64,000 nucleotides of DNA from assembly GCA_965249715.1 (NCBI GenBank), contig CBDFMP010000048.1, positions 69,713 to 133,712 of the forward strand, given 5' to 3'. Positions 18,656 through 62,305 of the stretch are shown here, in pieces. The first letter of the stretch is position 1. Each line of letters starts with the position of its first letter. The translations under genes and the position numbers were made by a program. The stretch is from Spirochaetota bacterium. Its GTDB lineage: Bacteria; Spirochaetota; UBA12135; COTS27. A model generated the notes under the pieces. It was not told the DNA's origin and did no database searches. It saw only the letters and a program-made list of their open reading frames with translations.

Positions 18656-20072
18656 ATGAAAAGACTCCTACTCATTTCTTCCGTGCTTGTGGCAGGGTTG
18701 ACTTCATACGTGTTTGCTGCCGGCTATACTGCTGGTGTTAGCATTGATGCACGTGTTGGTGGTTACATAGTTGGTGGCGGCACTGCTTTTGAAACGTTTA
18801 CTGTAGAAACGACTACAGATTCTACAGGCGCAGTGGTTTACCAACAAGTTCCCGGTACTGGTCAGGCAATTGGCGATAACGCGCAGGAATATGACACCAC
18901 TAAAATTACATTTGATGCCAGCATTGACAATGTTTCTGCATCCGTCACATTTGCGGCTAACAGCGTAGATGGGGGGGCAACTAACTTCATCACACTTGAT
19001 TCTTTCAATGTAAAAGCCAGTGATCTATTTGGTATGTTGACACTTCAGTTTTATGACTGGGGTTATTCTGCAGGCAGCTCAGCCAATGAAGGCGATTACA
19101 TTCTATCAGACATTGGGTTTCCATGGTTTTTATGCCACTGTTAAGCCTATTGATATTCTCAGTATTGGTCTCGGTTTTGGTGTGAATACAGATAGCATTC
19201 GCGGTGTGCGGCTTGATTTCGGTATTGGCGGTCCCGTTCCTACGGATATTTATCTTGGTGTTGTTATTAATAGCATTGATAACGAAGATGATGCTGGTCA
19301 TGTTAAAGAAGGTACCATTGAGCGTCTGCAGGCAGGTTTCCAATCTAAGCTTTACGGCGATTATGTGAAACTAAGCTTCGGTATTACTCCACTTGGTACT
19401 GCTGTCAGTTACCTTGAGACTACCGCTACGGGTACAATAATTGTAAATACAGATGATGATGGCGTTGAGACATATACGAATGAAATACGCAGCTGCCGCT
19501 GATACAACTACGGAAATTAACTTTGTAGTTGATATTTCAGGCAGCGCTTCTTTCCTAGGCGGGCTTTTCAGCTTGGGTTATGGCGTGCAGTACGCAGCGC
19601 CTACTCTTACTAAAGCACTAGCTGCAGGTGGCGGCGGTCTTACTGGAGATGGTGTCGCAGTCGCTTATCCCACTGACTTCGGTTATCAGGCTATTTATAA
19701 CGGTGGTACTGACCTCTTGGAAGACATTGCTGTGAAACATTAATCCTGCTGTTACTGTTGGGCAATTCACTGTTTCACTGCCTATTAAGTTTGAGCTTTA
19801 CGGCACTACTTATGGCGGTTATCAGTTGCGTCAGGATCCAGTGTATATCATTGACATTGACGCCGACCATTAAGTGGTCGCCTGCTTCTGGCATTAGCGT
19901 CGTAGCGCTTATTGGTATTGACCTGATCAATACTTCTATAGGCGATCTCAATACTGATATTGGTGTTGGCTTTGTTGATCAAGGTCATACCAGCGGTGAA
20001 ACTGGTTTTGGTATTGATGATATTTTCGGACAGCTTCAAGTAGCTGCTTCATTCGGAGTATCTTCTGAGTAA
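18656..20072 (+). pseudogene. Secreted or surface protein gene of unknown family (~470 codons) interrupted by four successive +1 frameshifts
   Basis: Signal peptide MKRLLLISSVLVAGLTSYVFA. The reading frame moves from frame 2 (18656) to frame 0 (~19110), frame 1 (~19485), frame 2 (~19745) and frame 0 (~19865). The last two shifts are 1-nt length differences relative to the in-frame partial copy at 20192-20618. Confidence 0.7.
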
Positions 20073-20140
20073 GTTTTGTTATTTAGTTTTAGCGGGTTAG
20101 GCGATTAACAAAAAATCGTCCTGAGCTCGGTTAAAGCCTA

Positions 20141-20185
20141 AAGCCCACGCAGGATGCCAGTTGGTATTCTGCGTGGGCTTTTTTT
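20141..20185 (+). terminator. Rho-independent terminator, copy 1 of 4
   Basis: Stem gcccacgcag (20143-20152) / ctgcgtgggc (20169-20178), followed by T7 (20179-20185). Confidence 0.85.
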
Positions 20186-20191
20186 GTCGAT

Positions 20192-20618
20192 TGGAGAGGG
20201 TATCGCAGTTGCTTATCCCGATAACTTCGGTTATCAGGCTATTTATAACGGTGGTACTGACCTCTTGGAAGACATTGCTGTGAAAATTGTTCCCGCTGTT
20301 ACTGTTGGGCAATTCACTGTTTCACTGCCTATTAAGTTTGAGCTTTACGGCACTACTTATGGCGGTTATCAGTTGCGTCAGGATCCAGTGTATATCATTG
20401 ACGTTGAGCCGACTATTAAGTGGTCGCCTGCTGCTGGCATTACCGTCAAAGCGCTTATTGGTATTGACCTGATCAATACTTCTGTAGGCGATTTCAATAC
20501 TGATATTGGTATTGGCTTTGTTGATCAAGGTCATACCAGCGGTGAAACTGGTTTTGGTATTGATGATATTTTTGGACAGCTTCAAGTAGCTGCTTCATTC
20601 GGAATATCTTCTGAGTAA
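20192..20618 (+). pseudogene. Promoterless, frame-intact copy of the last ~140 codons of the 18656-20072 gene (3' cassette)
   Basis: Homology to 19644-20072 begins immediately after terminator copy 1. There are no frameshifts and many substitutions, and the stop is at 20616-20618. Confidence 0.8.
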
Positions 20619-20685
20619 GTTTTGTTATTTAGTTTTAGCGGGTTAGGCGATTAACAAAAAATCGTCTGAGCTCGGTTAAAGCCTA

Positions 20686-20730
20686 AAGCCCACGCAGGAT
20701 GCCAGTTGGTATTCTGCGTGGGCTTTTTTT
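20686..20730 (+). terminator. Rho-independent terminator, copy 2 of 4
   Basis: Same stem at 20688-20697 / 20714-20723, followed by T7 (20724-20730). Confidence 0.85.
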
Positions 20731-20906
20731 GTCGATGTTAGTGTAGGGGGCTATTTATAACGTGGTACTGACCTCTTGGGTCTGTGTGCCGATTGCTGTT
20801 ATGAGGTTTCGTTGGCGGCGCGCGGGGGGGCGTTGCATTGCGATGGGAGGACGTAGGCTTTCCGTGAGTGTCTTATTGTTTATCGTAGTGATGTTAGAAT
20901 TAGTAT

Positions 20907-21910
20907 ATGGGAAAGTGGAGTAAGCTGGTGCAGATTTTGGCATTCGGAATATTTTAAAGAGAATTACTGCTCGTGGCTTTGGTCAATAGTTATTATTTTA
21001 AGTATAGTTGGATGTGCATATTGGTTAGGCTTATGCTTTAATGAGAGTAAAGCTAATTAGTGTATTTAATTGCTACTATAATGATAGGAATATTTACGCC
21101 TGCTTTTACTATTTCTGAATACAGGAACATATAAATCAGAATTTCAGTTAAAAGAAGTTCATAGTGAGGATACTCGGTCTTAAGGACCGCTCATGCTGAT
21201 ATATCGGTCAGTTAAGAAAGGATCATGGTGAGGATAGTCGGTCAGTTAAAAGAAATTTATGACAGTAAGCTTAAGGCACAAAAAATAGCAATTTGATAAC
21301 AATAAAATTGTTTTTTTGGGTTCACGTATCTTATGGAAATTGCAGAAAAGTTAATTGAAGAAGTAACCAAGAGACAAGGAATATGAAAATTTGGATCTGA
21401 TGAAAGGATTTGTGTTTATAGGTATTTTTCCAAAGAAAGGGGGTTTAGGTGTATTGGACGTTATTCAAAAGTAGATCCAGAATTAAATAAATTTGTCGAG
21501 AATAAATTATTATCAGTGAAGGATTTATATCTAACGTATTTAAGAAAACCGATTGGGTAGAAGCAATAGCTTCCAAGTATTCCACATGATAATAGGATGC
21601 AGTATAGAGCGTTGGAAACGATACAGGGCGGATAGATCATATAAAAGAGGAGGATCAAGGCTTTTCCTTAAGAGGTATCAGAGCATATATTAAAGAGGAG
21701 CATGGACTTACGCCTGATGTTTATGAAAAATTTCGCATGAATGCTGAGCATATGATTGCTAAAAAATTACAGGATAAAACAGCTATAGGCGTTATTGTGT
21801 TTGAAAGCTGCCGCAAGGATTTTCTTTCATTGGAATGTATAAAAAAAGCTTGCACTAAGAATGATGAGCAGTTTATAATTAGGATGATATGTGATCATTT
21901 TCATGAATAA
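20907..21910 (+). pseudogene. Decayed copy of the 2-TM cassette gene (paralogue of 22745-23611)
   Basis: Upstream region and first ~23 nt are identical to those of 22745. A stop follows after 16 codons. Internal fragments are recognisable (CVYRYFSKERGFRCIGRYSK.., ~21410-21540) with in-frame stops. The C-terminal ~80 codons (21660-21910) are still alignable, including FRMNAEHMIAK. Confidence 0.75.
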
Positions 21911-21930
21911 GCATAATTAATGGATGAGGG

Positions 21931-22476
21931 ATGATGACAACAGCGACAATTGCAGAGAGCCAAACGATTCTTATGGACGTTATGGCTTATATTTGTAAAA
22001 GATATAGTAGCCCGGAAGAACTTTCCAAAGCAAGGCTGACGAAGCTAATTTATTTGGCGGATTGGAGGTCTGCTAAGACTAAGAGTGATAACAGTCAAAT
22101 CACGAATATTAAATGGTATTTTAATCATTACGGGCCTTATGTGGATGATGTGGTGGATGTGATCATTGATCACGAGGACACTTTTAAGCTTGACCCCGGT
22201 ACTAATATTTATGGTGGTGTCCGTGATCTTGTGAGGTTAAAAAAAGCGGATTACGAGTATGGGCAGCTGCAACGAGAGGAAGACAAAAAGCTCTTGGATG
22301 AAATTATTACTAGGAGTGCAGGGTTGAATTGGACTAGATTTATAGACTTAGTTTATTCATCTTACCCTATTACAGTTTCCGAACGCTATGCTCAGCTTGA
22401 TTTGCCAGCTTTAGCAAGAGAGTACAAAGAGCGCGAAAGCAAGCCGCATTTCGAGCTTATTGCTGATGACATTTAG
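21931..22476 (+). CDS. Panacea/DUF4065 (SocA/GepA-like) antitoxin-domain protein, copy 1
   Basis: 181 aa. Strings RLTKLIYLADW..WYFNHYGPYVDDV fit the DUF4065 pattern (KLxKLLY..W..GPV). About 65% identical by eye to 23671-24213. Confidence 0.7.
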   Translation: MMTTATIAESQTILMDVMAYICKRYSSPEELSKARLTKLIYLADWRSAKTKSDNSQITNIKWYFNHYGPYVDDVVDVIIDHEDTFKLDPGTNIYGGVRDLVRLKKADYEYGQLQREEDKKLLDEIITRSAGLNWTRFIDLVYSSYPITVSERYAQLDLPALAREYKERESKPHFELIADDI

Positions 22477-22541
22477 TCGCGTAGTTGTAATTTTTAAGGC
22501 TGGATGATTTAACTAATCGTCTGAAGCCCGATTAAAGCCTA

Positions 22542-22586
22542 AAGCCCACGCAGGATGCCAGTTGGTATTCTGCGTGGGCTTTTTTT
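22542..22586 (+). terminator. Rho-independent terminator, copy 3 of 4
   Basis: Stem at 22544-22553 / 22570-22579, followed by T7 (22580-22586). Confidence 0.85.
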
Positions 22587-22744
22587 GTCGATGTTAGTGT
22601 AGGGGTCGCGTGGGGGGGTCTGTGTGCCGATTGCTGTTATGAGGTTTCGTTGGCGGCGCGCGGGGGGGCGTTGCATTGCGATGGGAGGACGTAGGCTTTC
22701 CGTGAGTGTCTTATTGTTTATCGTAGTGATGTTAGAATTAGTAT

Positions 22745-23611
22745 ATGGGAAAGTGGAGTAAGCTGGAGCAGATTTGGGGATTCATAAAAGAAAACTACCG
22801 TTGGTGGGTTTTATATATATGTATATTGGGTGTTGTTAGCCTACTTGCAGATTCAAGTGAGCTAATGAGGTGTTTAAGACAACAAAAGTTAGGGTTAGTG
22901 GAGTGTTTTAGGCAACTAAATTTTGTATATTCTTTTACAACTCTCTTGGGACCGCTAGCTATATATGGTTTTGAGGAATGGAGAAAGTCTAAACTGAAAA
23001 AATCTTACAAGGAAAAATTTGAGAACCTGGAAATAACGTTTAAGGAGAATAGCTTAGACTTACATCTTACGTTAATTATAAAAAAATTAAATGCTCTAGC
23101 AGCAGCAAATAATCAGGCATTTGGAACCACTGAAAGACTTTGTATTTATAAACATTTTCCAAGAACTGAAAATGAAGGAGAATGTTTTAGGTGTGTCGGG
23201 CGTCGTTCAAGCAATAAAGAACTTGCCAAATTTACTAAGGATAATCTATATCCTATTGGGAATGGATTTATATCAAAAGTATATCGTGAGGGCAATGAGT
23301 GGTTGGTAGATAGGGATTTTCTGAGTATTTCGCCTGATGATAGGGATCGTATATTGCGAGGGGAGCATCCTGGTTCACTTGAGCAGTATCGAGCAGATAT
23401 TAAAAGGAGGCATGGGATTACAAGGGAGACTTCCAAAAGCTTTCGCATGAATGCTGAGCATATGATTGCTAAACAACTAAAGGATCATAACAATGAGGAG
23501 GTTATTGGAGTTATTTTATTTGAAAGTCAACGTAAGAATTTCCTTTCATTAGAGCTTATAAAAAAATCTTGCACAGAAACAGATGAGCAGCTTATAATTA
23601 ATATGATGTGA
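22745..23611 (+). CDS. 2-TM membrane protein with an unassigned ~160-aa C-terminal domain (GAF-like or HEPN-like strings); putative toxin/effector partner of the Panacea protein
   Basis: 288 aa. TM segments RWWVLYICILGVVSLLA and FVYSFTTLLGPLAIYGF, then a charged linker. C-terminal strings YPIGNGFISKV and EVIGVILFES, plus RMNAEH (an R-x4-H motif, nt 23444-23461). No SD; TAGAAT (22733-22738) lies 6 nt before the ATG. Confidence 0.6.
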   Translation: MGKWSKLEQIWGFIKENYRWWVLYICILGVVSLLADSSELMRCLRQQKLGLVECFRQLNFVYSFTTLLGPLAIYGFEEWRKSKLKKSYKEKFENLEITFKENSLDLHLTLIIKKLNALAAANNQAFGTTERLCIYKHFPRTENEGECFRCVGRRSSNKELAKFTKDNLYPIGNGFISKVYREGNEWLVDRDFLSISPDDRDRILRGEHPGSLEQYRADIKRRHGITRETSKSFRMNAEHMIAKQLKDHNNEEVIGVILFESQRKNFLSLELIKKSCTETDEQLIINMM

Positions 23612-23670
23612 ATGGTTTATGATACATAGGGCACTAAGTTTTGTATAGCTTCATACATGGATGACAGGAT

Positions 23671-24213
23671 ATGACAACGGCAGTAGCTGCAGAAAGCCAA
23701 ACAATACTTATGGATGTTATGGCTTATATTTGTAAAAAATATCCTTATGCGAGAGCTCTTTCTAAGGGAAGGCTGACGAAGCTGATTTACTTAGCAGATT
23801 GGAAGTCTGCTAAGGATAGAGGCAGGCAGATTACGGATATTGAATGGCACTATAATCATTATGGTCCTTATGTGGATGATGTGGTGGATGTGGTTATTAA
23901 ACACGATGACATTTTTGAGCTTGAAGCTGACACTAATATTTATGGTAGTATGAATGATCTTGTGAAGCTAAAAAAAGCAGATTATGGATATAAGAAGTTG
24001 CAGCAATTGGATGAGGATAAAAAGATCTTAAGTGAAATTATTGATAAGAGTGTAAAGTTAAATTGGACTGATTTTATTCAGTTAGTCTATTCATCATATC
24101 CTCTTAAGGTTTCTAAGCGTTATCAAGATCTTGACTTGCCGGTTTTAGCAAGAAAATACAAAAAGAGTAGACGCTGGTGGCTGAATTTTGAGCTTATTGC
24201 CGATGACATTTAG
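23671..24213 (+). CDS. Panacea/DUF4065 (SocA/GepA-like) antitoxin-domain protein, copy 2
   Basis: 180 aa. Strings RLTKLIYLADW..WHYNHYGPYVDDV. Lies 59 nt downstream of 22745-23611 and is followed by terminator copy 4. Confidence 0.7.
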   Translation: MTTAVAAESQTILMDVMAYICKKYPYARALSKGRLTKLIYLADWKSAKDRGRQITDIEWHYNHYGPYVDDVVDVVIKHDDIFELEADTNIYGSMNDLVKLKKADYGYKKLQQLDEDKKILSEIIDKSVKLNWTDFIQLVYSSYPLKVSKRYQDLDLPVLARKYKKSRRWWLNFELIADDI

Positions 24214-24271
24214 CAGCGTAGTTGTAATTTTTTAGGCTGGATGATTTAACTAGTCGTCTGAGTCTATTAGT

Positions 24272-24316
24272 AAGCCCACGCAGGATGCCAGTTGGTATTC
24301 TGTGTGGGCTTTTTTT
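24272..24316 (+). terminator. Rho-independent terminator, copy 4 of 4
   Basis: Stem at 24274-24283 / 24300-24309 (one G-U pair), followed by T7 (24310-24316). Could also serve the convergent kdsB. Confidence 0.8.
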
Positions 24317-24470
24317 GTCGATGTTAGTGTAAGGGGGAGCTCCGTGTGCGATTGCTGTTAGTGAGTTCGTGCGGAGCTGGCACGACGAGCTCAGGTGACG
24401 GAGAATGCTGTGAAGTATTAGCTAAATTAAGGGATAAGCCAGTTAGTCGTCAGTCCTTGACTGACGCGTC

Positions 24471-33473: not shown

Positions 33474-34301
33474 ATGTCCTCATCCCTCAGTATGTTTGCG
33501 ATTAAGACTTTTTTACCGCGTACGATGTTTGTTTTTCTATGCAGCTTCACCGTGTGGCAAGCACAGCAGCTTTGTACAGCGTTTCCCGCCAGCGCCGCCG
33601 CTTCCAGGCTATCCGCTGCCGCTGCCAGGCAGTCCGTTTATTATGTAGCAGCGCGTTATGACAGCAACCAGCTCCTGCGCGTGGTAGAGCGACCGATTGT
33701 TTATACAGATGGCATTCTTTTTACCTATTTGGCGCCCACTCCCAATACGGAGGTCAGCATCAGTGGTAGTTTTGTTGACTGGCAGCTGAATATTAAACTC
33801 AGCCCCAACGCCTTAGGGATTCACAGTGTATGGGTCCCGCTGAATTTTCCCCCAGGCCGTTACAGTTACAAGTTTAACGTTGACGGTATTTGGATCAACG
33901 ATCCCCAGCAACCTTATCGCATCCAGGAAACGCAGCACTTGGGGACTGCTGTTACTGAGCATTCCGCTTTTCAGCTCTCGCAAGTGGTTGAGCAGCACCT
34001 AAGTAGTCCCGTTGCCCGGGGGCAAGGACTTTTTACGTTTTATTTAGCCGATAAGGGCTACACACGCGTCAGCTGGGTGGGAACGGCTAATCTTTGGCAC
34101 CCCACGCGTGATGCAATGGTTCTGAAAAATGGTTATTGGCAGCTCACCCGCCACCTCCCCATTGATGCCCCGTACTACCTGTTGTTAGCGGACGGCAACC
34201 TGAGCGTGGATCCGCTGAACGTCAATATTGCCGCTACACGCTTTCAGCCTCAGGTAAGTGTGGCACAAGGTGGCGGTTATTTTCTCAGCGAACGCAACTA
34301 A
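33474..34301 (+). CDS. Secreted protein with CBM48/AMPK-beta-like (glycogen-binding-type) beta-sandwich domains
   Basis: 275 aa with a signal-like N-terminus. Contains VSISGSFVDWQ...GRYSYKFNVDGIWINDPQQP, the classic G.F.W...Y.YKF.VDG.W..DP pattern. Confidence 0.55.
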   Translation: MSSSLSMFAIKTFLPRTMFVFLCSFTVWQAQQLCTAFPASAAASRLSAAAARQSVYYVAARYDSNQLLRVVERPIVYTDGILFTYLAPTPNTEVSISGSFVDWQLNIKLSPNALGIHSVWVPLNFPPGRYSYKFNVDGIWINDPQQPYRIQETQHLGTAVTEHSAFQLSQVVEQHLSSPVARGQGLFTFYLADKGYTRVSWVGTANLWHPTRDAMVLKNGYWQLTRHLPIDAPYYLLLADGNLSVDPLNVNIAATRFQPQVSVAQGGGYFLSERN

Positions 34302-34313
34302 TACAGTGACTGA

Positions 34314-36167
34314 CTAATGCAAATAGTCAATCGTGATCGTGCAGCAGTGCTCCTCAGCGGGCTGCGGTAAGCTGAGCTGCGCGAGAATATCGTCAGTGGG
34401 CGAAATAATGGTTATTGCGGCTTTCTGCTGGTTTGTTGATGGTTTTCTGCTGCGGCGCGACCGTGCAGGCAATGTTGTTTGAAGTTCCGTTGGTTCAGTA
34501 AAATCAAGGCTCAGTCGCTGCTGGGCGGCAGCACAGAGCTTTGGAAAGGTCTCAACCCCATTCCAGCAATACAAGCGCCTCTCCATTAAGGATTTCACCA
34601 AGCTTCAATGTACTGAGTAGGTCGTCATGGTGCCCACTAACATCAGTGTACGGGGAGTGATGGTTGCCAATAGTACTCCTTGGCACTTGTTGCAGGCGAT
34701 AAAGGTCGCCATGAAATAATGTGCCGTGTTGGCATGGCTGCCTGTTGCGGCGTTTGCCTAACATGTTTGGCGGCGGCTTTTTAATGCAAATAGTCAACGG
34801 TGATCGTGCAGCAGTGCTCCTCAGCGGGCTGCGGTAAGCTGAGCTGCGCGAGAATATCGTTAGTGGGCGGAATAATGGTTGTTGCGGCTTCAAGCTGGTC
34901 TGTTGATGGTTTTCTGCTGCGGCGCGGCACAGTGCAGGCAATGTTGTTTGAAGTTCCGTTGGTTCAGTAAAATCAAGGCTCAGTCGCTGCTGGGCGGCAG
35001 CACAGAGCTTGGGAAAGGTTTCACCCCATTCCAGCAATACAAGCGCCCTCCATTAAGGATTTCACCAAGCTTCAATGTACTGAGTAGGTCGTCATGGTGC
35101 CCGCTAACATCAGTGTACGGGGAGTGATGGTTGCCAATAGTACTCCTTGGCACTTGTAGGCGATAAAGGTCGCCGTGAATAATCTGCCGCGTTGGCATGG
35201 CTGTCTGCTGCGGCGTTTGCCTAACATGCTTGGCGGCGGCATTTTAATGCAAATAGTCAACGGTGATCGTGCAGCAGTGTTCCTCAGCGGGTTGCGGTAA
35301 GCTGAGCTGCGCGAGAATATCGTCAGTGGGCGGAATAATGGTTGTTGCGGTTTCCTGCTGGTCTGTTGATGGTTTTCTGCTGCGGCGCGACCGTGCAGGC
35401 AATGTTGTTTGAAGTTCCGTTGGTTCAGTAAAATCAAGGCTCAGTCGCTGCTGGGCGGCAGCACAGAGCTTGGGAAAGGTCTCACCCCATTCCAGCAATA
35501 CAAGCGCCTCTCCATTAAGGATTTCACCAAAATTCAATGTACTGAGTAGGTCGTCATTGTGCCCGCTAACATCAGTGTACGGGGAGTGATGGTTGCCAAT
35601 AGTACTCCTTGGCACTTGTAGGCGATAAAGGTCGCCGTGAATAATCTGCCGCGTTGGCATGGCTGTCTGCTGCGGCGTTTGCCTAACATGCTTGGCGGCG
35701 GCATTTTAATGCAAATAGTCAACGGTGATCGTGCAGCAGTGCTCCTCAGCGGGCTGCGGTAAGCTGAGCTGCGCGAGAATATCGTCAGTGGGCGGAATAA
35801 TGGTTGTTGCGGCTTCCTGCTGGTCTGTTGATGGTTTTCTGCTGCGGCGCGACCGTGCAGGCAATGTTGTTTGAAGTTCCGTTGGTTCAGTAAAATCAAG
35901 GCTCAGTCGCTGCTGGGCGGCAGCACAGAGCTTGGGAAAGGTCTCACCCCATTCCAGCAATACAAGCGCCTCTCCATTAAGGATTTCACCAAAATTCAAT
36001 GTACTGAGTAGGTCATCATGGTGCCCACTATCATCAGTGTACGGGGAGTGATGGTTGCCAATAGTACTCCTTGGCACTTGTAGGCGATAAAGGTCGCCGT
36101 GAATAATCTGCCGCGTTGGCATGGCTGTCTGCTGCGGCGTTTGCCTAACATGCTTGGCGGCGGCATT
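34314..36167 (-). repeat. Four extra tandem copies (462-467 bp each) of the 3' half of tsaE
   Basis: Unit ends (stop codons) fall at 36168, 35706, 35244, ~34781 and 34314. Units at 35706-36167 and 35244-35705 keep full 138-aa ORFs differing from the gene copy by 2 aa and 1 aa. The two distal units carry indels. Confidence 0.92.
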
Positions 36168-36980
36168 TTAATGCAAATAGTCAACGGTGATCGTGCAGCA
36201 GTGCTCCTCAGCGGGCTGCGGTAAGCTGAGCTGCGCGAGAATATCGTCAGTGGGCGGAATAATGGTTGTTGCGGCTTCCTGCTGGTCTGTTGATGGTTTT
36301 CTGCTGCGGCGCGACCGTGCAGGCAATGTTGTTTGAAGTTCCGTTGGTTCAGTAAAATCAAGGCTCAGTCGCTGCTGGGCGGCAGCACAGAGCTTGGGAA
36401 AGGTCTCACCCCATTCCAACAATACAAGCGCCTCTCCATTAAGGATTTCACCAAAATTCAATGTACTGAGTAGGTCGTCATTGTGCCCGCTAACATCAGT
36501 GTACGGGGAGTGATGGTTGCCAATAGTACTCCTTGGCACTTGCAGGCGATAAAGGTCGCCGTGAATAATCTGCCGCGTTGGCATGGCTGTCTGCTGCGGC
36601 GTTTGCCTAACATGCTTGGCGGCGATGTTGCTGTATTGTTTGGGCAAGTTTTGTTGCAGGGAAGCTTGCACGGCTGCGATGGCAGCTTTTAACGGTACTG
36701 GTGTTTGTTGTTGCGGCTTAGCGGGATAACTGTAAGCTTGCAGCAATGTAAAAGTGGGGGAGGGCAAGGCGGCGGCTGTTACGCCCAGTGCACGTAACAT
36801 GCTGCGAATAAGATGAGATTTGCCGCTGCCCATGGGACCAGTGACCAGCACCACTTCATCGCCAACTAAACTTTTTATATAAGCTAAGGCAAACACCGTT
36901 GTGGCAGCTGCCGATGGAAGCAGGAAACGAAATGTTTCTCTGCCAGTAGCGGATGGTAACGAGCTTGGCGAGGTTGACAA
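36168..36980 (-). CDS. tsaE: tRNA t6A37 biosynthesis ATPase TsaE (YjeE), unusually long
   Basis: Walker A GPMGSGKSH, SPTFTLL, HGDLYRL and LLEWGE. At 270 aa it is much longer than the ~150 typical, with an internal Q/P/A-rich insert and a ~60-aa C-terminal extension. Only a TTG start (36980) is available. Confidence 0.8.
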   Translation of the reverse strand: MSTSPSSLPSATGRETFRFLLPSAAATTVFALAYIKSLVGDEVVLVTGPMGSGKSHLIRSMLRALGVTAAALPSPTFTLLQAYSYPAKPQQQTPVPLKAAIAAVQASLQQNLPKQYSNIAAKHVRQTPQQTAMPTRQIIHGDLYRLQVPRSTIGNHHSPYTDVSGHNDDLLSTLNFGEILNGEALVLLEWGETFPKLCAAAQQRLSLDFTEPTELQTTLPARSRRSRKPSTDQQEAATTIIPPTDDILAQLSLPQPAEEHCCTITVDYLH

Positions 36981-46798: not shown

Positions 46799-47704
46799 TT
46801 ACCAATAAATGGCAATGCCCACATTCAGTTTTTGCGTAAACGTCAGTTTGTTTTTGGGCACAGGTTCCACAAAATACTCCAATGCTACAGCGTACTGGGT
46901 GTGCAAGGCCATGGTGGGGGTAAAAAACCACTCGTACGTGACGGCAGCTGTGGTGCGCACCGTATTACCCCAATGATAAAGTGCGGTCGTTTCTAACAAA
47001 GTATTGATCAGCACATCCACAAGTCCATTGCTATTTTCTAATACTTGTTCTAAATGGAAATTGTAAACGTTAAAACGCGGGCGTGCCACAGCACCGATAA
47101 CGGGAAGATAATAATGGATGCGCAAATGATGTTTTTTTAAAGCAAAATTCACCATCAGTGCCGGGCCAATGGTCATGGTGGCACTCCAGCCATAACTGAG
47201 AAAATTCTGAATCAACCAAAAGTCTAGATTGCCTTCAACCATAAACCCAAGGTAAAGTGTTGCTACTTTTGTTCGCAATACGCTAAATGCTGAACTATAG
47301 GCTAGATTGACGAGGATATCCAAGTCAGCGCCTGATTGGGTAACGGGCCCATTGTCACCTGTGGCGTAGTTGACTAAGAGCGCTCCCGCGCCTGCTGTCA
47401 TTTGCACATAATGATAATGCTGCGGAGCAATATGCTCATACCCCAGGTGGAGATTGCCGCCAAGTCCCAGACGATAAAGCGAAGAAACGACGAGATCACG
47501 ACCATCGTTTAAAAATATTCCACCAGCAATGGTAAAAACATTACGCCGCGCCTCAGTCTCAGTGTCCGTGTCCAATGCCGGTTCAGCTGCGGGTGCCTCA
47601 GCTGGCGGTGCTGTTATTTCCTGTGCTAATAGCTTGGCTGGTTCATGTAACCAGCTGCTGACTAAGTAGCTGCCAGCGATGAGCAAGATGTAAAGTATTC
47701 TCAT
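46799..47704 (-). CDS. Putative outer-membrane beta-barrel protein (paralogue family, member 1)
   Basis: 301 aa. Signal peptide MRILYILLIAGSYLVSS, amphipathic strand pattern and aromatic C-terminus ..VGIAIYW. Shares blocks with 49414-50211 (KHHLRIHYYLPVIG/KHTLELNWYVPLVG; WGNTVRTT/WGNSFRTT). Confidence 0.6.
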   Translation of the reverse strand: MRILYILLIAGSYLVSSWLHEPAKLLAQEITAPPAEAPAAEPALDTDTETEARRNVFTIAGGIFLNDGRDLVVSSLYRLGLGGNLHLGYEHIAPQHYHYVQMTAGAGALLVNYATGDNGPVTQSGADLDILVNLAYSSAFSVLRTKVATLYLGFMVEGNLDFWLIQNFLSYGWSATMTIGPALMVNFALKKHHLRIHYYLPVIGAVARPRFNVYNFHLEQVLENSNGLVDVLINTLLETTALYHWGNTVRTTAAVTYEWFFTPTMALHTQYAVALEYFVEPVPKNKLTFTQKLNVGIAIYW

Positions 47705-47724: not shown

Positions 47725-48179
47725 TTAATAAATGGCAATACCAAGACCGACCTGATGGACATAGTCTGTTTGTGTATTGGCGGTTAATTTCGGATAATAA
47801 GCTACTTTCAAGATAATTCGCGTATTCTGAATCATATTTTGGACGGCTCAGTACCTTCGCTTTCGTTTGCCGAAAGTGGTAACAGTAATAGGACGCTGCT
47901 GATAATAATAAGAGCTGTTGTGAGTCTTAGGTTTTTGCTAAGTGACATGATTTTATCATCCATAAGCTTAAAAGATTAATGATAATAACTATTTTAACGG
48001 CATGGTCTATAATTATAAATTAAAGTAGCAAATTTGTTGCTTTATAATAGAGCTGTACAGGTTTTTTAGACTTTATTTAATATATTGCCGTTGAATACAT
48101 TCAGTTCGGGAGGTAATTTGAGTTTTGCCGGCGGTGATGCCTGCAGTCCTTGTAGCCAAGCTGCCAGCAGCGGCACTTT
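47725..48179 (-). pseudogene. Internally deleted duplicate of the OMP-2 gene plus its upstream spacer and the neuB 3' end
   Basis: 47725-47948 aligns with the 3' and 5' ends of 49414-50211 (start cat at 47946-47948; stop after ~38 codons). 47950-48145 aligns with 50212-50405. 48146-48179 aligns with an internal neuB piece (~50944-50985). Confidence 0.75.
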
Positions 48180-49413
48180 GACAATGCCGCGGAGCAATAT
48201 GCTCATGCCCTAAGCGGAGCTTGCCATCAAGTCCTAGACGATAAAACAAAGAAACGACGAGCTCACGACTATCGTTTAAAAACATTCCACCAGCAATGGT
48301 AATGGTAAAAACATTGCGCTGCGCCCTCAGTGTCCGTGTCCAAGGCAGGCTCAGCTGTGGGTGCCCTCAGCAAGCGGTGCTGTTATTTCCTGTGTTAATA
48401 GCTTAGCTTGGCTGGTTCATGTAACCAGCCGCCAGCAGCGGCACTTTGACAATGCCGCGGAGCAATGTGCTCATGCCCTAAGCGGAGCTTGCCATCTAGT
48501 CCTAGACAATAAAACAAAGAAACGACGAGCTCACGACCATCATTTAAAAACATTCCACCAGCAATGGTAATGGTAAAAACATTGCGCTGCGCCCTCAGTG
48601 TCCGTGTCCAAGGCAGGCTCAGCTGTGGGTGCCCTCAGCAAAGCGGTGCTGTTATTTCCTGTGCTAATAGCTTGGCTGGTTTCATGTAACCAGCAGCTAC
48701 CAGCGCACTTTGACAATGCCGCGGAGCAATGTGCTCATGCCCTAAGCGGAGCTTGCCATCTAGTCCTAGACGATAAAACAAAGAAACGACGAGCTCACGA
48801 ATAAAAGGCAATGGTAATGGTAAAAAAGCCCTCAGTGTCCGTGTCCAAGGCAGGCTCAGCTGTGGGTGCCATCAGCAAGCGGTGCTGTTATTTCCGAGCT
48901 TGGCTGGTTTCATGTAAGCAGCTGCCAGCGATTTAAAATACACCCCTCTAATAAAAGGCAAGCCGCCAGTAGCGGCACTTTGACAATGCCGCGGAGCAAT
49001 GTGCTCATACCCTAAGCGGAGCTTGCCACCTAGTCCTAGACGATAAAACAAAGAAACGACGAGCTCACGACCATCATTCCACCAGCAATGGTAATGGTAA
49101 AAACATTGCGCTGCGCCCTCAGTGTCCGTGTCCAAGGCAGGCTCAGCTGTGGGTGCCCTCAGCAAGCGGTGCTGTTATTTCCTGTGCTAATAGCTTGGCT
49201 GGTTTCATGTAAGCAGCTGCCAGCGATGAGCAAGATGTAAAATATTCTCATCCCTCTAATAAAAGGCAAGCCGCCAGCAGCGGCAGCAAGCGGTGCTGTT
49301 ATTTCCTGTGTTAATAGCTTGGCTGGTTCATGTAAGCTTGGCTGGTTCATGTAAGCAGCTGCCAGCGATGAGCAAGATGTAAAATATTCTCACCCCTTTA
49401 ATTTCTCATCCCT
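48163..49413 (-). repeat. About 5 degenerate tandem copies (~240-290 bp) of the 5' end (first ~90 codons) of OMP-1, some including its start region and the OMP-2 stop junction
   Basis: Recurring blocks gccagcagcggcactttgacaatgccgcggagcaat..ctcagtgtccgtgtccaaggcaggctcagctgtggg..ggctggttcatgtaa are homologous to 47415-47704. Units start near 48163, 48431, 48695 and 48962, and at least one further unit begins in the rearranged stretch after ~49230. Confidence 0.8.
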
Positions 49414-50211
49414 CTAATAAAAGGCAATGCCAAGACCGACCTGATGGACATAGTCTGTTTGTGTATTGGCGGTTAATTCCGGATAATAATCTAATGAGAC
49501 GCCATAATGGCAAACAAAGCCTATAGACGGAAGTACTCCAATGCGGTAGGTTAAATTTATGGTAGTGCGAAAACTATTTCCCCATGAGCGCAGCCCCAGC
49601 TCCACTGGTTCTGTCTCGGCGTTCAGTGAACTGATGCCTACGAGCGGTACATACCAATTGAGCTCCAATGTATGTTTTCCGATAATGAATTCACCGATGA
49701 TGGCTGCGCCTAAGGTAGTTGTGGAAAAGGTATCGTAGCGATAAAGAATAGCGTCGCTCAGCAAAGTTGTATTATTTTCAATCGTAAAACCTAGATATAG
49801 ATTGAGAACTTTCAGTGGGAGGAGATTATAGCTTAGGTTGAAGGTGCCATTGATCAAACCGCGCAATGTTTCGTCGGGAGCATTGGGGGTGAACTCATGC
49901 CAAAATATTTCCACCCGCCCAAAGCCACGGACGCGATTTTTGATAAAATCCAATTGCACCCGTCCGCCGTAAACATAATAGTATGTGATCTCGGGCACTT
50001 CTATTTCTTCAAGATAATTCGCGTACTCTGAACTGTATCCAGGCACATCTACATTGTAAAACATGACGCTGGGAAGGATTGTGAAGATAAATTTTGTTTT
50101 TTTGGACGGCTCAGTACCTTCGCTTTCGTGTGCTGTTAGTGGTAGTAGCAATAGAGCGCTGCTGACAATAACAAGAGCTGTTATTATTCTTAGGTTTTTG
50201 ATAAGTGACAT
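49414..50211 (-). CDS. Putative outer-membrane beta-barrel protein (paralogue family, member 2)
   Basis: 265 aa. Signal peptide ..ALVIVSSALLLLPLTAHE and C-terminus ..VGLGIAFY. Paralogous to 46799-47704. Confidence 0.6.
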   Translation of the reverse strand: MSLIKNLRIITALVIVSSALLLLPLTAHESEGTEPSKKTKFIFTILPSVMFYNVDVPGYSSEYANYLEEIEVPEITYYYVYGGRVQLDFIKNRVRGFGRVEIFWHEFTPNAPDETLRGLINGTFNLSYNLLPLKVLNLYLGFTIENNTTLLSDAILYRYDTFSTTTLGAAIIGEFIIGKHTLELNWYVPLVGISSLNAETEPVELGLRSWGNSFRTTINLTYRIGVLPSIGFVCHYGVSLDYYPELTANTQTDYVHQVGLGIAFY

Positions 50212-57253: not shown

Positions 57254-58138
57254 ATGGACATATTGTCAGCTCCCGCACTTTCCTTAACACCTCTTAATTC
57301 TTATCAGGTCAAGCTTCCCACATGGAGCGGTCCTATGGAATTATTACTGGACCTCATTCGTTCAGCGCAACTGGAAATTACCGAACTCTCGCTTACACAA
57401 ATAACGGAAGATTACCTAAATCGCCTTACTGAGCTTAAACGGCTGGACATTGCCGTGAGTGTGGATTTTTTAGTTATGGGGGCGACGTTGGCGCTTTATA
57501 AAACGCGCGCGCTTCTGGGAGAGCCGGCTGAAGTGGAAGCAGCCGATGCCTACAAGGAAGCATTGGTCCAGCAACTGCTTAAATATGAGCAATACAAACA
57601 GGCGGCTATGCGTTTGGAACAGTTTTTGGAGCAGACGCCCGCTGTTACATTGGAAAAGGTGTCCTTAACAGCGCGTTTGCCGGCGACTGCTAAAGCTTAT
57701 CCTGTGGAACAACATGGGCAGTGGCAGCCTGCATCTTTGGCGGACTTGGCTGCGGCATTTTATCGCATCATGGATCGGCAGACACAAACGCTTGCCAAAG
57801 ATTCTTTTAGCAAATTTGCAGAAAAGGTTGAGGAGAAACGTTTATGGATAGTCAGCGAGCTTAAAGGCGCGCGCGGGATGAAAGGAGTGCCATTTTCGTA
57901 TTTTGTCAAAGCTGCAAGCGGCAACGCACCACTGCCCAGTGAAGTGCTGGCTGTGTTTGTCGCGCTTTTAGAACTTTACAAGCTGGCACAGCTGGAAGCT
58001 TATCAAGCTGAAGCTTTCGCAGAGATTATGCTCTTTAATAATGCCGCGCGTGCGCGCTCAACACCCGCTGAAACCAAGTCGACTGCTGCCACTGAAGTCA
58101 AACACGTCGACACAGCAGACGAACAAGCAGATCACTAA
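57254..58138 (+). CDS. scpA: Segregation and condensation protein A (kleisin)
   Basis: 294 aa. N-terminal GPMELLLDLIRSAQLEITELSLTQITEDYL is typical of ScpA. Its last ~56 codons form unit 0 of the downstream repeat array. Confidence 0.85.
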   Translation: MDILSAPALSLTPLNSYQVKLPTWSGPMELLLDLIRSAQLEITELSLTQITEDYLNRLTELKRLDIAVSVDFLVMGATLALYKTRALLGEPAEVEAADAYKEALVQQLLKYEQYKQAAMRLEQFLEQTPAVTLEKVSLTARLPATAKAYPVEQHGQWQPASLADLAAAFYRIMDRQTQTLAKDSFSKFAEKVEEKRLWIVSELKGARGMKGVPFSYFVKAASGNAPLPSEVLAVFVALLELYKLAQLEAYQAEAFAEIMLFNNAARARSTPAETKSTAATEVKHVDTADEQADH

Positions 58139-60347
58139 ACATAACTTTGTTGTGTTTTTAGAACATTACAAGCTGGCACAGCTGGAAGCTTATCAAGCTG
58201 AAGCTTTTGCAGAGATTATGCTCTTTAATAATGCTGCGCGTGCGCGCCCAACACCCGCTGAAATCGGGGCGGCGGCTGCCATTGAAATCAAGCACGCCGA
58301 CACAGCAGACGAACAAGCAGATAACTAAACATAACTTTGTTGCGTTTTTAGAACATTACAAGCTGGCACAGCTGGAAGTTTATCAAGCTGAAGTTTTCGC
58401 CGGGATTATGCTCTTTAACAATGCCGCGCGTGCGCGCTCAACACCCGCTGAAATCGTGTCGGCTGCTGCCATTGAAATCAAGTGCGCTGAGACAGCAGAC
58501 GAACAAGCAGATCACTAAACATAACTTTGTTGTGTTTTTAGAACATTACAAGCTGGCACAGCTGGAAGTTTATCAAGCTGAAGCTTTCGCAGAGATTATG
58601 CTCTTTAACAATGCCGCGCATGCGCGCCCAACACCCGCTGAAATCGTGTCGGCTGCTGCCATTGAAATCAAGCGCGCCGAGACAGCAGACGAACAAGCAG
58701 ATAACTAAACATAACTTTGTTGCGTTTTTAGAACATTACAAGCTGGCACAGCTGGAAGCTTATCAAGCTGAAGTTTTCGCCGGGATTATGCTCTTTAACA
58801 ATGCCGCGCGTGCGCGCTCAACACCCGCTGAAACCGTGTCGGTTGCTGCCATTGAAATCAAGTGCGCTGAGACAGCAGACGGACAACGATAACTAACGTA
58901 ATTTTGTTGCGTTTTTAGAACATTACAAGCTGGCACAGCTGGAAGCTTATCAAGCTGAAGTTTTCGCCGGGATTATGCTCTTTAACAATGCTGCGGGTGC
59001 AACACCCACTGAAACCGTTTTTAGAACATTACAAGCTGGCACAGCTGGAAGCTTATCAAGCTGAAGTTTTCGCCGGGATTATGCTCTTTAACAATGCCGC
59101 GCGTGCGCGCCCAACACCCGCTGAAACCGTGTCGGCTGCTGCCATTGAAATCAAGTGCGCGAGACAGCAGACGAACAAGCAGATAACTAAGCATAACTTT
59201 GTTGCGTTTTTGGAACTTTACTAGCTGGCACAGCTGGAAGCTTATCAAGCTGAAGTTTTCGCCGGGATTATGCTCTTTAACAATGCCGCGCGTGCGCGCC
59301 CAACACCCGCTGAAACCGTGTCGGCTGCTGCCATTGAAATCAAGTGCGTCGAGACAGTAGACGAACAAGCAGATAACTAAGCGTAACTTTGTTGCGTTTT
59401 TAGAACATTACAAGCTGGCACAGCTGGAAGATCACTAACATAACTTTGTTGTGTTTTTAGAACATTACAAGCTAGCTCAAGCTGAAGTTTTCGCAGAGAT
59501 TATGCTCTTTAACAATGCCGCGCGTGCGCGCCCAACGTTGAAACCTGCGCTGAACGTCGACACAGTAGACGAACAAGCAGATAGCGGTAACTTTGTTGCG
59601 TTTTTGAACATTACAAGCTGGCACAGCTGGAAGTTTATCAGATTGAAGCTTTCGCAGAGATTATGCTCTTTAACAATGCCGCGATGCGCGCCCAACACCC
59701 GCTGAAATCGTGTCGGCTGCTGCCATTGAAATCAAGTGCGCTGAGACACAGACGAACAAGCCGATAACTAAGCGTAATTTTGTTGCGTTTTTAGAACATT
59801 ACAAGCTGGCACAGCTGAAAGTTTATCAGATTGAAGTTTTCGCAGAGATTATGCTCTTTAACAATGCCGCGCGTGCGCGCTCAACACCCGCTGAAACCGT
59901 GTCGGTTGCTGCCATTGAAATCAAGTGCGCTGAGACAGCAGACGAACAAGCAGATAACTAAACATAACTTTGTTGCGTTTTTAGAACATTACAAGCTGGC
60001 ACAGCTGGAAGTTTATCAAGCTGAAGTTTTCGCCGGGATTATGCTCTTTAACAATGCCGCGCGTGCGCGCTCAACACCCACTGAAACCGTGTCGGCTGCT
60101 GCCATTGAAATCAAGTGCGCTGAGACAGCAGACGAACAAGCAGATAACTAAACATAACTTTGTTGCGTTTTTGGAACTTTACTAGCTGGCACAGCTGGAA
60201 GCTTATCAAGCTGAAGTTTTCGCCGGGATTATGCTCTTTAACAATGCCGCGCGTGCGCGCTCAACACCCGCTGAAACCGTGTCGGCTGCGCCATTGAAAT
60301 CAAGCGCGCCGAGACAGCAGACGAACAAGCCGATAACTAAGCGTAAC
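58139..60347. repeat. Tandem array (~190-bp period; ~11 full and 3 truncated units) copying the overlapping 3' ends of scpA (+) and hemJ (-)
   Basis: The unit landmark gaac(a/t)ttacaagctggcacagctgg occurs at 57971, 58161, 58351, 58541, 58731, 58918, 59024, 59213, 59403, 59460, 59606, 59794, 59984 and 60174. Each unit carries the scpA stop, and its reverse strand carries the hemJ C-terminal ..LSY.LVRLLSRRA codons. Confidence 0.92.
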
Positions 60348-61379
60348 CACGCCAATAACAATAAGCGTCGCAATGAGCGCCGGTAGCGGTTGTTTGAAAA
60401 TGGCTAAGAATACGATGCCGGTAAAGAGCATGGGTGCCACTTTATTGAAGCGCCGCAGCCGACGGCTGATACTTGTTGGCTGGGGGTGGTGTGGCTCCAG
60501 CATGACGCCCGCGATACAAATATGGTAGACCGCCAGTATTATGATCAACATCATTTTCCAGTATATCCAAGACTGGACAAACGCATTGCTTTTATAAGTT
60601 AATGCAATAAGCAGCCCGGAGATAATGGTGAGTATAAACGCAGAAATGGCAACACCGAATATATTGAGTTCCATGGAACTGTACTGTTTTTGTAGGGCTG
60701 CGCGCACTTCAGGGGTTAATGGCTCAGCTCCAGCAGTAGTGCTAAGCGCTTTCTGATGGTACACAGGCAGTTGTCCCCCACAAAAAATTGCCGCCATCCA
60801 GCTTACCATTGTAATAATATGAGCGACTAACATAAAATGGTAAGAAAAATTCTCCTCCCAGAAAAGAACTATAAGCTCATTTTTAAACGTCACAATGAGT
60901 GCCGATGGTGATTGTTTGTAAATTGCTAATAATATAATGCCCATAAAGAGCATGATGCCCATCAGTTTAATGAATAAGTGCAGACGGCGACTGCTCATTA
61001 CCGGCTGGGAGCGGCGCAGTTTCAGCATGATGCCCACGGCATACATATGGTAGCCCACCAGTGCTATGACCAACATCATTTTCCAGTGTATCCAAGACTG
61101 TGCAAAGGCATTGCTTCTGAGTGCAAGCTCAATCCCGAAAGCAATGGTGAGCATAAGCGCAGGCGTGGCAATAACGCTGAGGAGTCTGCGTTCCATGAAA
61201 CTGTACTGTTTTTGTAGGGCTGCGCGCACTTCAGGGGTTAATGGCTTAGCTCCATCAGCAGTGCTAAGCGCTTTCCGATGGTATGTAAGCAGTTGTCCCG
61301 CCAAAAAAAGTGCCGCCATCCAGCTTACCATTGCAATAATATGAATGCCTAAACTAAAATGATGAGAATATAGTTCCAT
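60300..61379 (-). CDS. hemJ: In-frame head-to-tail fusion of two HemJ (protoporphyrinogen IX oxidase, UPF0093) modules
   Basis: 359 aa. Both halves start with ..(E)LYS(H/Y)HF..HII(A/T)MVSWMAA and repeat the whole ~175-aa HemJ architecture. Function of the fusion is uncertain. Confidence 0.65.
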   Translation of the reverse strand: MELYSHHFSLGIHIIAMVSWMAALFLAGQLLTYHRKALSTADGAKPLTPEVRAALQKQYSFMERRLLSVIATPALMLTIAFGIELALRSNAFAQSWIHWKMMLVIALVGYHMYAVGIMLKLRRSQPVMSSRRLHLFIKLMGIMLFMGIILLAIYKQSPSALIVTFKNELIVLFWEENFSYHFMLVAHIITMVSWMAAIFCGGQLPVYHQKALSTTAGAEPLTPEVRAALQKQYSSMELNIFGVAISAFILTIISGLLIALTYKSNAFVQSWIYWKMMLIIILAVYHICIAGVMLEPHHPQPTSISRRLRRFNKVAPMLFTGIVFLAIFKQPLPALIATLIVIGVVTLSYRLVRLLSRRA

Positions 61380-61448
61380 TACAAATGTACTCCCTACCGC
61401 GTGGTATTGAATTTCATAAGAGTTAATGTTTGAATATGTAAAAAATAA

Positions 61449-61637
61449 TTAAAGCCGATTGAGCTCATTGAGACTATTGAGCGCAGCAATTCCATAAGCC
61501 TCAGCCATTGACGAATAAATAAACGTATTATTCAGGAAGTAGCGTAAGTTGTTAGCCGCGCCGCGCTGGTTCATGATGGCTTGACCTAGATGGATGAGCT
61601 CCGAAGTTTGTCGCCCCAAGCAGTGCGCGCCTAAAAT
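61449..61637 (-). pseudogene. Stray copy of the last ~62 codons of sthA
   Basis: ..[51 protein letters not shown] aligns with the true sthA C-terminus. The upstream end is fused to a fragment of the scpA/hemJ repeat (61640-61700). Confidence 0.85.
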
Positions 61638-61681
61638 TTCCCAACACCCGCTGAAACTAAGTTGGCTGCTGCCACTTGAAG

Positions 61682-62236
61682 TCAAGCGCGCCGAGACAGC
61701 AGACGGATAAACAGATAACTAAGCGTAACCACGCCAATAACAATAAGCGTCGCAATGAGCGCTGGTAGCGGTTGTTTGAAAATGGCTAAGAATACGATGC
61801 CGGTAAAGAGCATGGGTGCCACTTCATTGAAGAGCCGTAGCTGACGACTGCTCATTGTTGGCTGGGAGCGGCGTAGTTTCAGCATGATGCCCACGGCACA
61901 CATATGGTAGCCCACCAGTGCTATGACCAACATCATTTTCCAGTGTATCCAAGACTGTGCAAAGGCATTGCTTCTGAGTGCAAGATCAAGTCCGAAGACA
62001 ATGGTGAGCACAAGTGCAGGACTGGCAATAATGCTGAGGAGTCTGCGTTCCATGGAACTGTACTGTTTTTGTAGGGCTGCGCGCACTTCAGGGGTTAATG
62101 GCTCAGCTCCATCAGCAGTGTTAAGCGCTTCCTGATGGTACACAAACAGTCGTCCCACATAAAAAAGTGCCGCCATCCAGCTTACCACTGCAATAATATG
62201 AATGCCGAAACTAAAATGATAAGAATATAGTTCCAT
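61682..62236 (-). CDS. hemJ: Protoporphyrinogen IX oxidase HemJ (UPF0093 family)
   Basis: 184 aa with [22 protein letters not shown] and four TM segments. Confidence 0.8.
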
Positions 62237-62305
62237 TACAAATGTACTCCCTACCGCGTGGTCTTGAATTTCATAAGAGTTAATGTTTGAATATGTGAAA
62301 AATAT

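Follow-up and report, generated by a model that had tools for sequence, protein, structure and literature searches.

Why should the 3′ half of an essential gene be repeated, head to tail, between that gene and its convergent neighbour? The question is raised by a stretch of DNA of 64,000 nucleotides (nt), hereafter the window, from a Spirochaetota bacterium (GenBank assembly GCA_965249715.1, contig CBDFMP010000048.1, positions 69,713 to 133,712 of the forward strand), in which tsaE, a housekeeping tRNA-modification gene, is followed by partial copies of itself. A preliminary description of this locus, made from the sequence alone, took the array as pointing to an unusual duplication process that might produce stand-alone C-terminal TsaE fragments. 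Here we argue that the array probably arose as a tandem segmental duplication confined to this lineage, and that it is one outcome of a wider propensity of the genome to duplicate stretches of 190-550 bp. In all likelihood the extra copies are near-neutral leftovers in the course of decay, and not part of any system specific to tsaE.

Results

The 3′ half of tsaE forms an array of five units

The parent gene is tsaE, as had been proposed. Its translation matches the Pfam family PF02367 (TsaE / YjeE; E=3.5e-17, 63 bits for a cut-off of 26.6) in two stretches, at profile positions 2-64 and 67-120, and the TsaE chain 6n9a_E of the Protein Data Bank matches residues 34-83 and 169-199. Furthermore, the 270 residues contain the Walker A motif GPMGSGKS, the switch motif HGDLYRL and the EW motif LLEWGE. 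In the public gene call (P0007) the start is placed at 36896, for a protein of 242 aa. However, the alignment with the syntenic TsaE of the nearest relative, COTS27 (38% identical), extends to residue 3, and the long start at 36980 is therefore favoured.

The repeat was delimited in several ways. By period, the array occupies 34314-36629 of the minus strand, with a 462-bp unit, 5.0 copies and a 97% match. Tandem Repeats Finder (TRF) places it at 34315-36624, with a period of 462, 5.0 copies, 97% matches, 0% indels and a score of 4312. Comparing the sequence with itself after a shift of 462 positions gave blocks of 20/20 identity from ~36624 onwards, and a repeat search returned unit spacings of 462, 462, 463 and 467, the last two being found where indels occur. 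The motif TTTGCATTA, present five times on the minus strand, fixes the five stop positions: the stop codons of the units end at 36168, 35706, 35244 and 34781 (all TAA) and at 34314 (TAG). The description of five head-to-tail units of about 462 bp is borne out by all three of TRF, the self-shift and the repeat search, and a repeat this long and this identical is beyond chance. The locus is composed as follows.

36168..36980, minus strand: tsaE, the parent gene, 270 aa from a TTG at 36980; residues 133-270 are present in every unit.
36168..36629, minus strand: unit 1, 462 nt, the expressed 3′ part of tsaE; TAA at 36170-36168.
35706..36167, minus strand: unit 2, with an intact 138-aa open reading frame (ORF) at 35706-36122 (P0005); 6 in-ORF substitutions relative to unit 1, 2 of them non-synonymous.
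35244..35705, minus strand: unit 3, with an intact 138-aa ORF at 35244-35660 (P0006); 5 in-ORF substitutions relative to unit 1, 1 of them non-synonymous.
34781..35243, minus strand: unit 4, a pseudogene copy with a 1-nt deletion, a 2-nt insertion and 7 substitutions relative to the consensus.
34314..34780, minus strand: unit 5, with insertions of 1, 3 and 1 nt, 18 substitutions relative to the consensus and a TAG stop.
34302..34313: native 12-nt spacer that separates the array end, which is the original stop of tsaE, from the convergent gene's stop.
33474..34301, plus strand: convergent neighbour, 275 aa, glycogen-binding AMPK1_CBM (Pfam PF16561, E=8.5e-13), intact and outside the repeat.

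Each unit comprises 45 nt (..AAKHVRQTPQQTA), 138 codons and a stop, which adds up to 462 nt or 154 codons, so that the reading frame is kept from unit to unit. The repeated part includes both the HGDLYRL and the LLEWGE motifs, in agreement with the preliminary description. The period places the start of unit 1 at 36629, and exact identity with unit 2 begins at 36624: the first two codons of unit 1 read AAC ATC, versus AAT GCC in the other units, a difference of three transitions.

The two proximal extra units do retain complete 138-aa ORFs, with only 2 (unit 2: V>D, N>H) and 1 (unit 3: A>T) residue differences from the gene copy. The two distal units carry indels, as had been noted, two in unit 4 and three in unit 5. 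In unit 4 the 1-nt deletion cuts the ORF to 72 aa (34980-35198). Unit 5 is the most decayed copy, is contiguous with the native 3′ flank and, judging from its sequence, would be the oldest. The distance of 12 nt between the array and the stop of the convergent gene was also found to be correct, as were all the other factual points of the preliminary description.

A single junction and exchange between units

The same join, TTGCATTAAAA[T/A]GCCGCCGCCAA[G/A]CATG, is found at 4 of the 4 internal unit boundaries. It connects codon ~117, which lies inside an insertion absent from COTS27 TsaE, with the position that immediately follows the stop codon of tsaE. As the junction is identical at all four boundaries, the array would go back to one founding duplication, followed by copying of whole units. 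The two joined sites share no more than 1-2 nt of homology, no long repeats were found flanking them, and hairpins at the breakpoints are not significant (z 0.1-0.3). In view of this lack of homology, flanking repeats and hairpins at the join, the first event is best described as illegitimate. We also considered that the join had regenerated the stop codon (TA + A), an idea that was rejected as unprovable. Indeed, the ungapped in-frame alignment places the whole stop inside the unit, so that the difference between TAA and TAG is a single transition.

The units are ordered by their divergence. Measured against unit 1 over the whole 462 nt, unit 2 has 9 substitutions and unit 3 has 8, with no indels in either; for unit 4 the count is 13 substitutions and 2 indels, and for unit 5 it is 23 and 3. 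The units have not diverged independently, since every one of the four allele combinations occurs among the units at alignment columns 102/163, and again at columns 102/189. This four-gamete test demonstrates exchange between units, through unequal crossover or gene conversion.

An array known from one assembly, in which neighbouring units share identical stretches of ~200-250 nt that are hard for short reads, could be an assembly artefact: the true number of copies would be one or two, and the assembler would have built five units from variants of different strains or from repeat reads that it resolved wrongly. We consider this quite unlikely. The units carry private substitutions and indels and form an ordered gradient of divergence, the stop-to-mid-gene junction must exist in the reads, and the window contains four more arrays, which differ in age; its base-level quality is otherwise high. 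A more limited version of the objection, that the indels of units 4 and 5 are long-read errors, was rejected: the tightly packed window holds long intact ORFs of up to 1165 aa, which makes sequencing noise an unlikely source of these indels. Two metagenome scans, one with TsaE peptides and the other with the exact junction DNA, recovered no second copy of the organism and no independent confirmation of the junction.

The array is absent from the nearest relatives

Comparison of DnaJ places the organism in the Spirochaetota. At 90% identity, the proteins of the window that were checked either stand alone or group exclusively with other copies from the window, and all of them belong to one contig of 202,120 bp. 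We judged the ancestral state against the two nearest relatives available. In COTS27 (AP019861.1), the nearest one, the locus reads grpE, dnaK, dnaJ, a surA-like gene, tsaE (252 aa) and the convergent CBM gene; the gap between the tsaE and CBM stops measures 32 nt and contains neither a long-period repeat nor an array. The other, L083, is a third spirochaete represented by a 1.68-Mb contig, with dnaJ, a surA-like gene and tsaE (141 aa), again with no array. Since these relatives share the gene order and not the array, sequence comparison indicates that the array is a recent, derived and lineage-specific gain of 1.85 kb at a convergent gap that was ancestrally tiny.

TsaE itself differs in length between these genomes, with 141 aa in L083 (9973-10398), 252 aa in COTS27 (L001 12584-13342) and 270 aa in the window. 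Along the lineage it has grown by an insertion on either side of the HGDLYR motif and by a long C-terminal tail of low complexity. It is in the insertion preceding HGDLYR that the duplication has its 5′ breakpoint.

Unrelated genes in the window carry similar arrays

To assess whether tsaE is alone in this respect is to look at the remainder of the window. Self-BLAST of the 64 kb, together with TRF, revealed at least 4 further duplication loci besides tsaE, which differ in age (74-97% identity), and such gene-fragment array DNA makes up ~9% of the window. As a control, TRF was run on 82 further loci (900 kb in all), among them 80 tsaE loci of other genomes, and reported no array with a period of at least 100; arrays of such period are likewise missing from the loci of the relatives that are syntenic.

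57254-58138, plus strand: scpA, the parent gene of the next entry (Pfam SMC_ScpA, E=9e-19).
57956-60347: scpA 3′-end array, the last ~63 codons plus ~8 nt in ~13 copies, with a 190-bp period and 71-97% identity.
47805-49493: mosaic of 5′ fragments, ~5 degenerate copies with a period of ~268 bp and 74-94% identity.
19644-20191 and 20192-20736: direct duplication, 2 x 548 bp, 95.8% identity.
60262-62489: UPF0093 (HemJ/CopD-like) copies, a 359-aa ORF with two domain copies and a 184-aa copy (61682-62236).
21675-24336: duplicated two-gene cassette with ~76% DNA identity, one gene being SocA/Panacea antitoxin-like (181 and 180 aa).

The scpA array has the same architecture as that of tsaE. It fills the gap to a convergent UPF0093 gene, which it enters by 45 nt; its period is not a multiple of 3 and its ORFs are broken. 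COTS27 has no array here: 205 nt separate its scpA from a lone convergent UPF0093 gene, which encodes 204 aa. The copies at 47805-49493 derive from the 5′ end and upstream region of an outer-membrane-like gene (46799-47704), and this ORF-poor 1.7-kb region also holds a 5′ fragment of a paralogue (49414-50211); neither outer-membrane-like gene has a Pfam match. The UPF0093 copies of the window are 78-88% identical in DNA.

These observations clarify what is unusual about tsaE. The preliminary description had reasoned that a housekeeping gene is not an expected target for cassette variation, and that the array hence reflects an unusual duplication process. The array is real and the propensity to duplicate is unusual, and this part of the proposal stands. 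The process is not aimed at tsaE, since there are other such loci in the window; as their arrays involve unrelated genes, the housekeeping status of tsaE is incidental.

The position of the two 3′-end arrays allows for another explanation, namely that the extra 1.85 kb has been selected as a spacer. Both the tsaE and the scpA arrays lie exactly at convergent junctions whose ancestral gaps were tiny or overlapping, and no terminator-like site follows either convergent gene; a spacer between convergent genes devoid of intrinsic terminators would lower transcriptional collision or antisense RNA over tsaE. However, the other arrays of the window are away from convergent junctions, and in the relatives gaps of 32 and 205 nt suffice; we therefore hold selection for spacing to be very improbable.

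Three of these loci show further peculiarities. The last ~15 codons of UPF0093 (..LSYRLVRLLSRRA*) are the antisense of the final scpA unit (window 60300-60347), and a similar peptide, LSYLLVRLLSRA, is found in antisense ORFs of internal scpA units; this tail reflects either an ancestral overlap of the two genes or a tail acquired from the scpA array. Region 18656-20736, within which the 2 x 548-bp duplication lies, contains short plus-strand ORFs in shifting frames, without a Pfam match, and resembles a fragmented surface-protein gene. The GC content of 21675-24336 is low (~39-41%), and the region may be a mobile or defence-related island.

The extra units are unlikely to be expressed as proteins

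The suggestion that stand-alone C-terminal TsaE fragments are produced found no positive support. A consensus scan of the gene (minus) strand revealed no promoter-like or terminator-like site within the array. No Shine-Dalgarno-like motif precedes the internal ATG, which is weak evidence because many genuine genes here also lack one. The 138-aa ORF scores 19.2 bits against PF02367, below the cut-off of 26.6, and matches profile positions 67-120 only; the ORFs of units 2 and 3 thus contain no complete domain, as they lack the half of the single-domain fold that carries the Walker A motif (P-loop). The intactness of these two ORFs can be explained by their youth and low divergence: stop-creating changes make up 3.5% of the possible substitutions, and the probability that 6 random hits create no new stop is ~0.81.

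Other ORFs of the array were also submitted to Pfam, namely the junction-spanning 121-aa ORFs in alternative frames, the 82-aa ORF of the plus strand and the 161-aa frameshift ORF. None gave a match, which leaves neither strand of the array with a hidden gene. Searching the window for Rfam families and tRNA genes returned nothing, and GC skew revealed no origin or terminus nearby. A public collection nonetheless lists three array ORFs as proteins, P0001 (the 161-aa frameshift ORF across units 4-5, 34552-35037), P0005 and P0006, clustered with the tsaE call P0007; these three entries are probably annotation artefacts.

Could the ORFs of units 2 and 3 be translated all the same? By reinitiation, they would yield TsaE fragments devoid of the P-loop, which might for instance modulate the TsaB-TsaD-TsaE complex. 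Each of the two ORFs is intact, has an ATG, keeps the frame and retains HGDLYRL and LLEWGE, and the substitutions show an excess of synonymous third-position changes. On the other hand, such fragments would have neither Walker A nor the first half of what is a single-domain fold, and would have to be made from an array without a promoter-like site or an SD-like (Shine-Dalgarno) motif before the ATG. Units 4 and 5 have decayed, the scpA array, with its 190-bp period and broken ORFs, shows that these arrays do not in general have coding capacity, and intactness is expected by chance at such divergence (P ~0.8). Translation of the extra units hence seems quite unlikely.

Spirochaetes also offer a precedent for silent partial gene copies. 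The vlsE gene and vls cassettes of Borrelia burgdorferi and the tprK donor sites of Treponema pallidum are silent-cassette systems of antigenic variation. Like them, the tsaE array consists of head-to-tail partial copies beside an expressed gene of a spirochaete, with recombination between copies. It could thus be a reservoir of alternative C-terminal halves that are swapped into the expressed position to give functional TsaE variants, a possibility in line with the exchange seen in the four-gamete test; cycling through the expressed slot would also account for the synonymous bias. Unlike vlsE and tprK, however, what the parent gene encodes is no surface antigen but a cytoplasmic tRNA-modification ATPase. 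Identity between the cassettes is 95-99%, and they have no discrete variable regions, the intact ones lying 1-2 residues apart and differing at 7-9 scattered, mostly synonymous sites per 462. Moreover, in contrast to vls and tprK, all of them are co-oriented and each has a stop codon, with the two distal ones frameshifted. The other arrays of the window involve unrelated genes. A reservoir of TsaE variants is a highly improbable explanation.

A broader proposal joins these ideas: gene-end-anchored amplification would be ongoing, with units routinely passing through the expressed position and the C-terminal halves of essential proteins such as TsaE and ScpA being reshuffled under selection, and/or the fragments without a P-loop would be translated and regulatory. 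We regard it as quite improbable. If it were true, the reshuffling or the fragments would be an undescribed route to variation or regulation at housekeeping loci.

Several points do weigh against our reading of the array. The array is known from one assembly of the organism, and the promoter scan covered sigma-70-type consensus sites. The length of the unit is divisible by 3, and the ATG of each extra unit lies 45 nt past the preceding stop, an arrangement that might allow reinitiation. The private changes of units 1-3 amount to 6 synonymous and 3 non-synonymous ones, mostly GC-to-AT transitions at third codon positions; when only the silent units 2 and 3 are considered, synonymous changes account for 4 of the 5 transitions (P ~0.05, from few sites). 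Strict neutrality does not predict such an excess in extra copies. If unequal exchange moved units through the expressed slot, this bias would be explained without translation of the extra copies.

Discussion

A model for the origin and persistence of the array

The duplication scenario that we favour can be set out as a series of events. It would have started with one illegitimate join, between the base at or just after the tsaE stop and codon ~117, in the lineage-specific insertion of TsaE. From two copies, the array would have grown to five and been partly homogenised by homologous unequal exchange or gene conversion, an enzymology that we infer from the exchange between units. Given that there is a stop codon in every unit, the first one would always complete a normal tsaE. 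Gain or loss of units would therefore be nearly neutral, and this near-neutrality would allow gene-end-anchored arrays to survive even in essential genes. Most likely, the extra units would persist solely as an extended 3′ tail on the tsaE transcript and would yield no functional proteins. Units 2 and 3, which are intact and ~1% diverged, would be young, and units 4 and 5, already frameshifted, would be older.

In general terms, a duplication-prone genome would produce short tandem duplications at random; the cause of this proneness we can only infer. Duplications whose unit includes the stop or the start of a gene would leave one complete gene and hence be tolerated. The survivors would then expand, contract and become partly homogenised by homologous exchange, and their outer copies would decay.

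Comparison with known systems

Classical tandem duplication and amplification in bacteria is said to proceed in a comparable manner. Classical amplicons span kilobases to hundreds of kilobases and whole genes, are selected for dosage and are unstable. The tsaE array is similar in having a founding join with little or no homology, followed by homologous unequal exchange, and an identical novel junction at its boundaries. Indeed, it shows the features of duplication and exchange, with co-oriented units of constant period, one junction, absence in relatives and inter-unit exchange. It differs from classical amplification in that the unit is half a gene of 462 bp and in that the copies have persisted long enough to accumulate 1-5% divergence and indels.

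The genome of Ehrlichia ruminantium reportedly contains tandem repeats together with truncated, duplicated gene fragments. In this host-associated bacterium the arrays are many, have periods of ~100-500 bp, are mostly non-coding and located beside genes, and lower the coding density; the defining observation is that their copy number varies between strains or passages. Long-period arrays with truncated copies of the genes beside them are likewise numerous in the window: its 64 kb hold at least 5 such loci, and the 900 kb of control loci none. By analogy, this is the system that the process described here would resemble most. Among the differences, E. ruminantium belongs to the Alphaproteobacteria and our organism to the Spirochaetota, the units in the window are plainly gene-derived and in register with the stop codon of the parent, and the array is known from a single assembly.

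A third comparison is provided by COTS27, a crown-of-thorns starfish symbiont in whose genome 23 of 23 assembly gaps were due to genic tandem repeats (Wada et al. 2020, PMC7444263). It comes from the same deep 'marine spirochaete' neighbourhood as our organism, and tandem repeats are abundant in both. Unlike the window, its syntenic loci hold short-period (7-73 bp) repeats and no partial-gene array, with tsaE and scpA in single copy. Numerous AT-rich repeats, mostly intergenic, are present in two COTS27 loci (L001 5500-9970 and 14279-19104). Given the origin of its relatives, our organism may also be host-associated.

Significance

The organism is an uncultured spirochaete, a distant relative of an echinoderm symbiont. 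Its tsaE locus is a cautionary case, as a striking array beside an essential gene would be the symptom of genome-wide duplication-proneness and not a device specific to tsaE. A practical consequence is that P0001, P0005 and P0006, as probable annotation errors, are worth flagging in public gene calls. The array also constitutes a natural experiment on why gene-end-anchored duplications survive in essential genes. The genome-wide pattern is of more interest than the tsaE array: if it holds across the genome, this spirochaete would be a second independent case, beside Ehrlichia ruminantium, of genome expansion by tandem arrays of gene fragments.

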